Source: Waddliaceae bacterium (GTDB taxonomy: Bacteria; Chlamydiota; Chlamydiia; Chlamydiales; Waddliaceae). From it: a stretch of 64,000 nt of DNA. A program made the translations under genes and the position numbers. Under the pieces are notes generated by a model. It saw only the letters and a program-made list of their open reading frames with translations. It was not told the DNA's origin and did not search any database. Where the stretch lies: assembly GCA_963724325.1 (NCBI GenBank), contig CAVRUH010000007.1:256001-320000 (forward strand). Direction: 5' to 3'. Of the stretch, positions 1,006-3,183 are shown in pieces (position 1 is the stretch's first letter; every line of letters starts with the position of its first letter).

Positions 1006-1359
1006 GGCAGGATATGAAGGATGTAGGCGGAGGATAGGAGGCAGTGGCGTCAACTTAAAGAAAAATCTATAATTTTTGTCTATATAGACAAGAGGTAGGT
1101 TTTGGAAGGCTGAAGGCCGGGCTCTTAATAGCCCAGACCGCAGTGGAGCAAGCGCAAGCGAGCGGAACGGAGGTCTGGGTTGGGTGACAAATAGAACTGC
1201 GAGGGCTGAAAGCCCGATACATCAAATGACGGCTATTAATGAGTCGGGCTTTCAGCCTTCCAAAACCTACCTCTTGTCTATATAGACAAAAATTATAGAT
1301 TTTTCTTTAAGTTGACGCCACTGCCTCCTATCCTCCGCCTACATCCTTCATATCCTGCC
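1006..1359. repeat. Long perfect inverted repeat (109-bp arms) enclosing a REP-like loop; right arm continues at 3184 beyond the inserted element
   Basis: 1006-1114 is the exact reverse complement of 1251-1359. The loop contains GGGCTGAAAGCCC and AGCCCAGACC...GGTCTGGGTT hairpins. Confidence 0.95.
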
Positions 1360-2945
1360 CCATCACTACTCAATTGGCAATTTTCATAAAGCATTTTCGG
1401 TGATATGCAATGCATGATTTTTACCTCGCCTTTGGTTATGATAATTTTTTCAACTATTAAACGCACTAGTTTTTGCTTCTCATTGAATGGCAAATCTGGA
1501 GCCGATTTTTTAACTCTTTCTAAAATACTTTCAAAAGCATGCTCCCAACCGGATCCTATTTCTTTCATAAGTTTTAAATTTAATCGTTCCTTTTTCTCGT
1601 TCTCAAGTTCGCCTCTTCTTTTTTCTAACCCCTGGGCTCTTTGACTTAGAGAAGTTAAATCTAATAAACCACTTTGATATGCATCTAAAAGTCGCTCTCG
1701 TTCTTTTATAAGCTTTTCTAATTCTTTTCTCATCGAAATTTCCTGCCTCTCGATTTCCTCGATATTTCCGCTTTCCTTTTCTCTTCTTTTAAACTCTTCC
1801 TGCAACATAAATGGATTTTGAAGCATTTGAATTATTTCATTATAGACCAAATCATCGAGCTCATCCTGCTGTATATATCCATTAGAACATTTTGGTATTT
1901 TATTATCCGAATGGCTTCGACAATGATAATAATTTTTACTTATTCCCTTATATCTTCTCATTCTTTTATAAAATTGACAACCACATTCGCCGCACGTGAT
2001 TAATCCTTGAAGCAAGGAAGGTTCTTTGGTATTTCTTAAGGCTAATTCTTTATTTTTATTTATATATTCCTGTGCTGTTTCAAAATCACTTTCACTAATT
2101 ATAATTGGAATATTTATCTCGTACCAAGAGTCTTCATTAGTTTTTTTTCGTGGATTTTTTGGCTTCAGCCGTCTTAAGCCTTTATAATGCCTTATTTTAT
2201 CTATACCCTCATACTTTTCTGATTTACCATAGGCTGCAGTGCCTATATAAGCCTTATTTTTTAATATCCCTAAGATGGTTGCTGGAAACCAATAGGAATT
2301 TCCTTTTGGGCTTTTAATTTGGACCTCGCTCAACCTTCGACAAATTCCATTTAATGAAAGCCTCTCATGAACATATAAATAAAATATTTTTCTTACAACA
2401 TTCGCGTCTGTTTCAACGATTTCAATCACCGTTTGACGTTCATTTTTTATCCTCTGATAGCCATATGGTAGCTTAGGAAGAATAGCTGGATCTCCGCTTT
2501 TTGCTTTATGAATAGTACCTCGACGAGATCGATCTAATATTAATGCTCTTTCATATTCAGCAAAAATCCCCTGAAAATGAGTAAACATTATTGCTTCAGG
2601 AGTGTCACCTTGAGGAACATTTCTAATGAAAAGAACCTTCACTCCACATCGTCGAAATTCATCTAACAAAATAAGTTGATGAGGATAATTTCTGGCTAAC
2701 CTATCTGGTGCATAGATCAAAATCGCGTCGACAGACTCTGTTCGTATCAAATCTCGTAAATCATCTAAAGCAGGTCTTTGAAGACTTTGACCACTTATAC
2801 CGTTATCAAGAAAAAGCCACGTTTCTGGAATTTGATATCCTTCTTTGAGTCCAAATTCTCGAAGAACCAATTCTTGACTTTCGATCGTTTCATCTTCTTT
2901 TTGCTTCTGTGAGGAGACTCTGGCATATATTGCGGCTTTCTTCAT
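1293..2945 (-). CDS. Large serine recombinase (resolvase catalytic domain, recombinase domain, Zn ribbon, coiled coil)
   Basis: YARVSS catalytic motif, DRLAR motif, PYGY, CGECG...C...C zinc ribbon, AGGAG RBS. The last 20 codons and the stop come from the target repeat. Confidence 0.95.
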   Translation of the reverse strand: MKKAAIYARVSSQKQKEDETIESQELVLREFGLKEGYQIPETWLFLDNGISGQSLQRPALDDLRDLIRTESVDAILIYAPDRLARNYPHQLILLDEFRRCGVKVLFIRNVPQGDTPEAIMFTHFQGIFAEYERALILDRSRRGTIHKAKSGDPAILPKLPYGYQRIKNERQTVIEIVETDANVVRKIFYLYVHERLSLNGICRRLSEVQIKSPKGNSYWFPATILGILKNKAYIGTAAYGKSEKYEGIDKIRHYKGLRRLKPKNPRKKTNEDSWYEINIPIIISESDFETAQEYINKNKELALRNTKEPSLLQGLITCGECGCQFYKRMRRYKGISKNYYHCRSHSDNKIPKCSNGYIQQDELDDLVYNEIIQMLQNPFMLQEEFKRREKESGNIEEIERQEISMRKELEKLIKERERLLDAYQSGLLDLTSLSQRAQGLEKRRGELENEKKERLNLKLMKEIGSGWEHAFESILERVKKSAPDLPFNEKQKLVRLIVEKIIITKGEVKIMHCISPKMLYENCQLSSDGAGYEGCRRRIGGSGVNLKKNL

Positions 2946-3183
2946 GATGGAGCTCCTGATTGATGGATGACCGAATTGATATTGTGCTGTTGAGCAATAT
3001 CGCTAAGCCCTTGATTAATTTTGCTCTTTGATTCCTCTGAGGGTGATATTCGAGTACAATTTTTTGGACTTTGATGCATTTTGACAATGTTCTGAGCCTT
3101 GTTTCGAGAAGAATATTTACCGATTGTACTTCTATCAAACATTTTCTCAAAACAAATTTTGCCAATTGAGTATTGATGGGGTG
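1356..3183. mobile_element. Minimal integrative element encoding a large serine recombinase, inserted in a palindromic repeat
   Basis: Ends CCCCATCACTACTCAATTGGCAA (1358-1380) and TTGCCAATTGAGTATTGATGGGG (3159-3181) are 23-bp inverted repeats with one mismatch. TG is duplicated at 1356-1357 and 3182-3183. Removing the element restores ATCCTTCATATCCTGCCGCTTGCGATC, found intact at 54212-54238. Confidence 0.9.
2942..3181 (-). CDS. Open frame filling the element's upstream end; either a ~66-aa gene (ATG 3142) or the circle-specific C-terminus of the recombinase
   Basis: Stop-free from the element end (3181) to TGA 2944-2942, which overlaps the recombinase ATG (ATGA). In frame with the recombinase across the predicted circle junction. 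Confidence 0.5.
   Translation of the reverse strand, partial: PHQYSIGKICFEKMFDRSTIGKYSSRNKAQNIVKMHQSPKNCTRISPSEESKSKINQGLSDIAQQHNINSVIHQSGAPS

Follow-up and report, generated by a model that had tools for sequence, protein, structure and literature searches.

A 64,000-nucleotide stretch of the genome of a Waddliaceae bacterium (assembly GCA_963724325.1, contig CAVRUH010000007.1, positions 256,001 to 320,000; this whole stretch is called the window below) carries a 1.8-kb element built around a gene for a large serine recombinase (LSR). Our reading of this element, which sits at a fixed TG dinucleotide of a host repeat, is that it moves by LSR-mediated excision to a circle and re-insertion, with the direction of the reaction probably set by an attachment (att) site placed inside the recombinase gene; to this reading as a whole we give a probability of about 0.7. 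The transposition route, excision as a circle followed by insertion at another copy of the repeat, appears very probable, and for a switch operated by a state-dependent protein tail we would give roughly even odds. The element and its parts in the window are as follows.

1356..3183, genes on the (-) strand: the whole element including both TG cores, 1826 bp plus the duplicated TG.
1356..1357: downstream TG crossover core at the 3' junction of the recombinase gene, the centre of the symmetric attP.
1358..1380: attP half-site at the 3' end of the recombinase gene, which also codes recombinase codons ~522-529.
3159..3181: attP half-site at the leader (5') end, the inverted-repeat arm.
3182..3183: upstream TG crossover core.

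An earlier note on this DNA had described 23-bp inverted ends with one mismatch, abutting a TG duplication whose identity extends to TGCC, and we recovered both: the arms at 1358-1380 and 3159-3181 are 96% complementary over 23 nt with one mismatch, the direct repeat common to both junctions is TG, extending to TGCC, and none of 300 base shuffles of 1301-3250 gave a comparable inverted repeat. The excised junction written out in that note is the one we computed from the sequence. A search for other genomic copies, as that note proposed, gives seven full-length copies in the host genome (G000), on two contigs, which match over exactly 1828 bp with identical boundaries and diverge outside; there are no solo ends in this genome, all 14 arm matches belonging to the seven full copies. 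Five copies are identical and the other two carry the same three substitutions, as would be expected from the recent insertion that had been suggested, and the copy number together with the abundant uninterrupted targets described below agrees with the insertion-sequence (IS) behaviour that had been suggested. The view that the locus offers a readable attP/attB set likewise holds, copies and uninterrupted repeats both being available. The 1826 bp contain only the recombinase gene and a small gene, orfA, with no mobilisation, conjugation or cargo genes, in line with the earlier remark that phage, conjugation and cargo genes are lacking. The GC content of the element is 0.35 against 0.40 for the genome. 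We conclude that the element is real and recently mobile. That it might be an assembly artefact or an inert relic, a thought invited by a metagenome-type host assembly of 11 contigs and 84.6% completeness, is extremely improbable in our view, considering that the seven sites have distinct flanks on two contigs, that contigs from independent runs (such as X4 and X6, which are from other studies) show the element joined to the same repeat, and that the same anatomy is seen in dozens of relatives.

The host sequences around the insertion are arranged in the window as follows.

1241..1355: host flank with the left portion of the interrupted repeat unit and of the arm of the long palindrome.
3184..3216: host flank that completes the interrupted repeat unit on the right.
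975..1124: mirror arm of the palindrome, an uninterrupted, natural copy of the empty site; its identity to the reconstructed empty arm, taken as reverse complement, is 147/150.

Without the 1826 bp, the flanks again form an inverted repeat of 150 bp with 975-1124 (147/150 positions). A shift inside TGCC fits this reconstruction equally well, and we placed the core at TG because the attP is then symmetric. All seven copies lie at ATCC-TG-CCGC in one orientation, and the target is a host repeat of ~45 bp, of which 202 uninterrupted copies with no more than two mismatches, grouped in 73 clusters, are present in the genome and none in two shuffled genomes. Just one of these 202 falls within an open reading frame (ORF) of at least 150 amino acids (aa), compared to 76% of random positions. 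Being short, high-copy, intergenic and arranged in clusters or inverted pairs, the repeat has the properties of repetitive extragenic palindromic (REP) sequences and of REP doublets forming hairpins (REPINs). A cognate RAYT transposase would be flanked by the repeat, a position that the single Y1 gene of this 84.6% complete genome, described below, does not show within its 3.3-kb locus. A further palindromic cluster built on it, with inverted arms of 41 nt and 40 nt, occupies window positions 5323-5680. The repeat is absent from 17 of 20 relatives, and a genome of the same genus (G001) has 225 copies of it without a match to the recombinase. At the locus in G001 orthologous to the window, where an empty allele was sought, the neighbouring genes match (window 3718-5022 and beyond) and a repeat pair lies next to them, with the element side unmatched among the tblastx matches listed. 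Insertion is, in all seven cases, aimed at one nucleotide of the host repeat, without scatter.

Such an exact association could also arise if the element had inserted once and had then been carried along passively with the repeat, by gene conversion or by a machinery that amplifies the repeat. Every copy is inside the same repeat, the genome has one Y1 (HUH) transposase gene (G000:C5:207478-207774, locus L164, in an assembly that is 84.6% complete), and the two copies that share three substitutions form a head-to-head pair separated by 66 bp, all of which would suit such passive spread. Nevertheless, we consider it quite improbable. On either side of the core the flanks of the copies begin to differ after 6-15 bases, in contrast to the 1828 bp, which are identical; the repeat units are thus different hosts rather than one copied block. 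Moreover, the recombinase is intact in every copy, no copy of the repeat is found in the 3.3-kb locus of the Y1 gene, and this pattern recurs, on another repeat, in a second chlamydial genome (G405). In that genome a relative of 49% identity has seven long matches (97-100%) whose flanks lie in another dispersed repeat; two of these have 4 kb of flanking sequence in common and perhaps represent a single site.

We note that three of the seven copies are clustered within 5.7 kb (G000:C1:24024-29734). Two of these are the head-to-head pair with the shared substitutions, which occupies the two arms of one repeat pair, and two of the three substitutions alter residues (H341Y and G445C). If att sites of different copies recombined, inversion or mobilisation of composite units could follow.

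The recombinase gene of the window copy is the following.

1293..2945, (-) strand: recombinase ORF, 550 aa, with codons 1-530 in the element and the remainder in the host flank.

Matches above cut-off to the Pfam families Resolvase (PF00239, 111 bits, residues 4-152), Recombinase (PF07508) and Zn-ribbon (PF13408), the four putative zinc cysteines C318, C321, C342 and C353, invariant in a 60-sequence alignment, the coiled coil and the layout of the att sites together identify the protein, as far as sequence and model can tell, as a large serine recombinase. The predicted nucleophile S11 (in YARVS) is conserved in at least 90% of the same 60 aligned sequences, and an AlphaFold model (predicted local distance difference test, pLDDT, 75) has long helices at 395-463 and serine integrases as its best fold matches. 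Domain scans of the element gave no match to a DDE transposase family, and DUF4368 is absent from the recombinase. Scores lie below the curated cut-offs for XisF (119 against 375 bits), CcrB (103 against 900), CcrC (82 against 900) and the IS607 model NF033518 (37.1 against 110 bits). Assignment to IS607, to IS110/IS1111, to the classical DDE insertion sequences or to SCCmec Ccr/XisF was therefore rejected on domains and cut-offs. For the inverted ends and the TG, a reading as the halves and core of an attP suits better than one as terminal repeats and target duplication of a DDE-type element. Elsewhere in the host genome there is a second, distant serine recombinase (G000:C11:65487-66173, 29% identity over residues 2-237).

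The description of the recombinase in the earlier note needs amendment in two respects. The ORF is intact, as claimed, and is so in all seven copies, but its last 20 codons and its stop lie in the flank rather than in the element; and the recombinase is not alone, since a conserved 65-aa gene, orfA, is also present at 2890-3087. This gene, the promoter and the open frame considered below are placed as follows.

2890..3087, (-) strand: orfA, 65 aa, with a TTG start and AAGG at 3100-3097, overlapping the start of the recombinase gene.
3123..3150, (-) strand: likely sigma-70-type promoter for orfA and the recombinase (TTGAGA, 16 nt, TACAAT).
2942..3181, (-) strand: open frame that would become the 79-aa tail in a circle, its TGA overlapping the recombinase ATG.

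For comparison we used elements whose ends could be placed. Ends were sought in 136 loci and in a phylum search; of the 26 loci of the window's clade 25 were examined, L028 having no 5' end, and after removal of L070 (arm 12/24), L158 (identical to L107) and L160 (98% to L159), 22 non-redundant elements of 1811-1874 bp remained, with nine kinds of core that are equal on both sides in 20 of them. A start codon stands at the place equivalent to that of orfA in all 22, and in the window the AAGG lies ten bases upstream of the TTG. Around the motif EY-x-PQRNQ, carried by 15 of the 22, the synonymous share of single-base codon differences is 0.60 in the orfA frame compared to 0.07 and 0.16 in the other frames, which indicates, at the level of sequence, that orfA is under purifying selection. 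Among cluster representatives it has 53 relatives at E<=0.001, and distant family members also have a similar small ORF. Pfam has no family for the OrfA of the window, and an Atlas search with it returned nothing at 0.9, the best value being 0.76. Known recombination directionality factors (RDFs) are small and mutually unalike and bind at the junction of the zinc domain and the coiled coil (PMC12286644). Because of its size, position and conservation we consider OrfA a candidate RDF, of a new family. A 103-aa ORF that starts in the flank (2890-3201) was rejected as a chance extension of orfA, its ATG being absent in one of the seven copies and the frame having stops in relatives. The scan for promoters gave 10 sites against 7.6 expected and is by itself not significant; a TTGAAA..TA-type block lies at the matching offset in the leaders of the 22 related elements.

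The feature that led us to place the control of direction in the att site is the reading frame through it. The recombinase gene has no in-frame stop inside the element, so inserted copies encode proteins of 533-550 aa with host-derived ends. When the 1826 bp are joined in silico to a circle, the recombinase frame continues to 609 aa and its terminal TGA overlaps its own ATG; a terminator scan found none on the recombinase strand of this circle. In 19 of the 22 related elements the circle frame runs for 60 codons or more without a stop, and all 22 have a size of 2 mod 3. Upstream of the orfA start it contains one stop, compared to 42 and 102 in the other two frames over 731 codons each. Within the overlap with orfA it contains 25 stops when 71 would be expected from synonymous resampling, the same resampling inside the recombinase gene giving, as a control, 91 observed and 82 expected. 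These counts indicate that selection keeps the circle frame open. In relatives of an actinobacterial type the tail appears conserved as protein: over 21 arms with the motif NFCF-D/E-VTL-S/G-YRR the synonymous share is 0.70 in this frame, compared to 0.21 and 0.14. This tail has no constant start codon upstream, is in frame across the junction where ends were placed, is 25-31 aa long and ends far upstream of the recombinase start.

In the mechanism we propose, the recombinase would cleave at the TG core, attL x attR recombination would excise the 1826-bp circle and attP x attB recombination would integrate it at another copy of the repeat, each step being modelled on the biochemistry of serine integrases. 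Copy number might rise when a circle released from one replicated chromosome inserts elsewhere. In the inserted state, the internal promoter would drive orfA and a recombinase with a short host-derived tail, and OrfA would act as the directionality factor for excision. In the circle, ribosomes would read through attP and across the promoter region and the start of orfA, perhaps generating the 609-aa long-tailed recombinase, and the combination of less OrfA with the long-tailed enzyme would then favour integration. The single orientation of the seven copies agrees with the rule that an asymmetric core sets the orientation, as given for the A118 integrase (PMC3556126), and recombination at 2-bp cores is recorded for Tn4451 in a review (PMC5704250).

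Several observations weigh against this proposal. Tails are short in three of the 22 elements (19, 42 and 48 codons), and in several other distant subgroups, whose ends are less certain, junction tails range from 3 to 123 codons. Nucleotides 25-54 of the chlamydial tail show no synonymous excess (0.21 compared to 0.18 and 0.22) and coincide with the conserved -35/-10 block; the conservation of the early tail sequence can thus be attributed to the arm and the promoter, and selection is shown there for openness only. A stretch FEK-x-FD in this tail, once considered a conserved protein motif, was rejected for the same lack of synonymous excess and coincides with the -35 box. OrfA modelled alone is a single helix (pLDDT 68) without a strand. 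The elements are related, leaders being 46-85% identical to their nearest neighbour, so the counts above are not independent, and the rule for finding ends was refined after two rougher passes. The circle junction was absent from the contigs of four runs, a weak test as contigs drop rare forms, and a long protein with the circle tail was absent among 7989 candidates, which is again a weak test. Finally, enzymes of the TnpX/TndX type work in both directions without an RDF according to the same review (PMC5704250).

The element might also take the route proposed above with a recombinase that is bidirectional like TnpX and uses no directionality factor, OrfA being a transcriptional or translational regulator and the tail having no function as protein; the open frame would then merely avoid ribosome stalling or couple re-initiation at the recombinase start. 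The lack of an amino-acid-level signal in the chlamydial tail, a mean column identity of 32% among tails, the position of the tail stop at or shortly upstream of the recombinase start in most members and the independence of the Tn4451 enzyme from an RDF, as the review has it in its account of that element (PMC5704250), all speak for this alternative. However, the actinobacterial-type tail of 25-31 aa is conserved as protein and ends too early for coupling alone to explain it, and the larger members of that type own a separate ribbon-helix-helix regulator as well. We therefore regard it as rather unlikely, and prefer direction control by an att site within the recombinase gene. Larger relatives of 2.2-2.5 kb (L178, L179, L113 and L114) have an extra ribbon-helix-helix (CopG) gene in the leader.

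Beyond the clade of the window, the recombinase has 2388 relatives at E<=0.001. Seventy-nine of the best 119 are on contigs of up to 2.5 kb, as expected of collapsed repeats, yet short contigs are common in that material. Nearly all end with a conserved QL-x-x-DG followed by a few variable residues. In the phylum search three of 400 other genomes matched at E<=1e-40, which does not mean absence from the others, since multicopy elements are often unassembled, and IMG/VR gave only 13 distant LSRs of 22-28% identity. The close relatives are probably chlamydial, and would seem to be located in hairpin-rich DNA: the reconstructed empty sites fold with z <= -3.0 in 10 of 20 cases, whereas a single one among 60 control stretches falls below -3; the empty site of the window itself has z -0.5. 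Distant relatives (~33% identity; Actinomycetota, Pseudomonadota and Chloroflexota) often split a reverse-transcriptase (RT) gene at PQGG-(V/I)-(I/V)-SP, in many cases the RT of a group II intron and at this one motif. RefSeq annotation gives RT fragments on both sides of the element in plasmids of Rhizobium sp. T136 and Bradyrhizobium elkanii, in either orientation, which is not the case in Nitrobacter. A quick tree of 72 rows puts the window in a clade of 22 rows (SH-aLRT, the Shimodaira-Hasegawa-like approximate likelihood ratio test, 98) without an RT-flagged row, and the adjoining group has 25 RT-flagged rows among 40. Relatives at 40-65% identity use different cores and targets. The reconstructed target of an alphaproteobacterial relative, L117, seems to resemble the C-terminal part of an IS110-type transposase. 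Other mobile genes may therefore serve as targets too. Left and right cores are often unequal in the intron-targeting relatives (such as GC/AT) and in two of the G405 copies (TG/TA and TG/GT), the loci concerned being L113, L039, L042, L053, L066, L110 and L103, hinting at insertion across a mismatched core, which is unusual for serine integrases.

We propose, tentatively and with slightly less than even odds, that these elements form a widespread minimal IS family whose serine recombinase senses its own state. With the att site in the last codons of the gene, the circle would fuse on a conserved tail, also sending ribosomes across the orfA start, and so flip the enzyme in cis from excision to integration; the chassis would have been retargeted between the PQGG-x-SP motif of group II intron RTs and unrelated host palindromic repeats. 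How a target is chosen might in principle involve RNA, with non-coding leader sequence acting as the guide in the manner of the IS110/IS1111 elements that target REPs. Targets differ widely among relatives, and the likeness of attP to its own attB is low over 20 elements (11.3 of 40 positions, compared to 9.9 for foreign targets), as RNA guidance would allow. The likeness of leaders to their own target, however, does not exceed that to foreign targets (longest exact match 6.25 nt for own and 6.50 nt for foreign targets, 20 elements), Rfam gave no match, the leader is filled by the arm, the promoter and two reading frames, and the recombinase has the usual two DNA-binding domains, making a guide RNA very improbable. 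Matches of attP to its own attB exceed those to foreign ones mainly at a distance of 7 bases (27 against 16, of 40) and 8 bases (21 against 12, of 40) from the core, and these two positions offer a lead on the bases that the enzyme reads.

Two further genes flank the element in the window. A lone 101-aa gene of the XRE/HipB-like helix-turn-helix type lies just outside it (3385-3690, + strand); it converges on acpS and has no toxin gene as a neighbour. At 2-787 (- strand), running off the window, is an ORF rich in Ala, Asn, Thr and Gln, of 795 codons in the genome, whose part in the window has no Pfam family.

The two problems still open in engineering with large serine recombinases are directionality and the choice of target. 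To these the element brings, within 1.8 kb, an enzyme that is intact together with its readable attP, ~200 empty targets and seven natural pairs of attL and attR. Added to this are OrfA, as a candidate directionality factor from a new family, and a second layer of control, predicted to lie in a C-terminal tail present only in the circle. The integrase that the earlier note called ready for testing exists in an inserted and a circle form (533-550 and 609 aa), which matters for the recombination assay proposed there. The varied targets of the family make it a natural library on how LSRs change specificity, and retargeting, if true, would amount to a natural series of such changes. Serine recombinases can thereby be added to the enzymes for which REP-like repeats are a safe place to land.

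How does the element relate to known systems? Tn4451/Tn4453 (TnpX; PMC5704250) are clostridial elements moved by a large serine recombinase, and so is Tn5397, with its recombinase TndX. Like these, the present element has an LSR as its transposase and 2-bp direct repeats, with a circle that we infer here. It differs from the Tn4451/Tn5397 type in its size of only 1.8 kb without mobilisation, conjugation or resistance genes, and we therefore rejected full membership of the Tn4451 type, of which mobilisation, conjugation and cargo functions are part; it differs also in the fixed nucleotide in a host repeat, the small conserved partner gene and the att site inside the recombinase gene. With the phage serine integrases (phiC31, Bxb1, A118/LI and the integrase-RDF complexes 9DXD/9DXF) it shares domain order and fold, a near-palindromic attP, an asymmetric 2-bp core that fixes orientation and, likely, a small RDF. 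Unlike these, it has no phage genes, is multicopy with ~200 targets per genome, and the C-terminus of its enzyme is set by the integration state. The IS607 family has a small serine TnpA with an N-terminal helix-turn-helix, usually together with TnpB. The element resembles IS607 in being an insertion sequence moved by a serine recombinase, and differs in its 530-aa LSR architecture, in the absence of the small TnpA and of TnpB, and in having no room for TnpB.

In the multi-targeting LSRs (Cp36, Pc01 and Enc9; PMC10083194), one LSR likewise acts at many host sites, with short att sites usable for engineering; there is no DUF4368 in the present enzyme, and its target, a single intergenic motif, is strict and numerous through the host repeat, not through relaxed specificity, so that it would seem to lie outside that clade. 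The main text of that study by Durrant et al. (PMC10083194), to the extent covered, has no mention of repeat targets, insertion sequences or chlamydiae, nor do the eight supplementary files, in their searched content, mention reverse transcriptase, maturase, palindrome or chlamydial targets. In mycobacteriophage BPs the attP lies inside the repressor gene and immunity depends on integration (PMC4557955); there, too, an attP is within a gene, and the free and integrated forms differ at the C-terminus, the longer form being that of the free state. The BPs repressor gene is cut by a separate integrase and the tail is a degradation tag, whereas here the gene is that of the recombinase itself and the tail frame crosses the promoter and the start of the partner gene. 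BPs would thus appear to be the nearest precedent for the proposed switch. ISPpu9, of the IS110 family, has seven copies in REPs of Pseudomonas putida and reportedly forms circular intermediates (PMC12288879 and PMC8450116); it is, like the element, IS-sized and multicopy with a fixed insertion place in REP sequences. ISPpu9 and IS110 use, as far as these accounts go, an RNA-guided DEDD enzyme, in contrast to the serine recombinase here, for which the guide signal is absent.

The open-access papers that join serine recombinase and repetitive extragenic palindromic, among those listed, concern IS110, and searches of the open-access literature gave no description of such an element. We regard it as a variant, new as far as these searches go, of the LSR-driven transposons of the Tn4451/TnpX type: the element works like the TnpX/TndX transposons and lives like the IS110 elements that target REPs.

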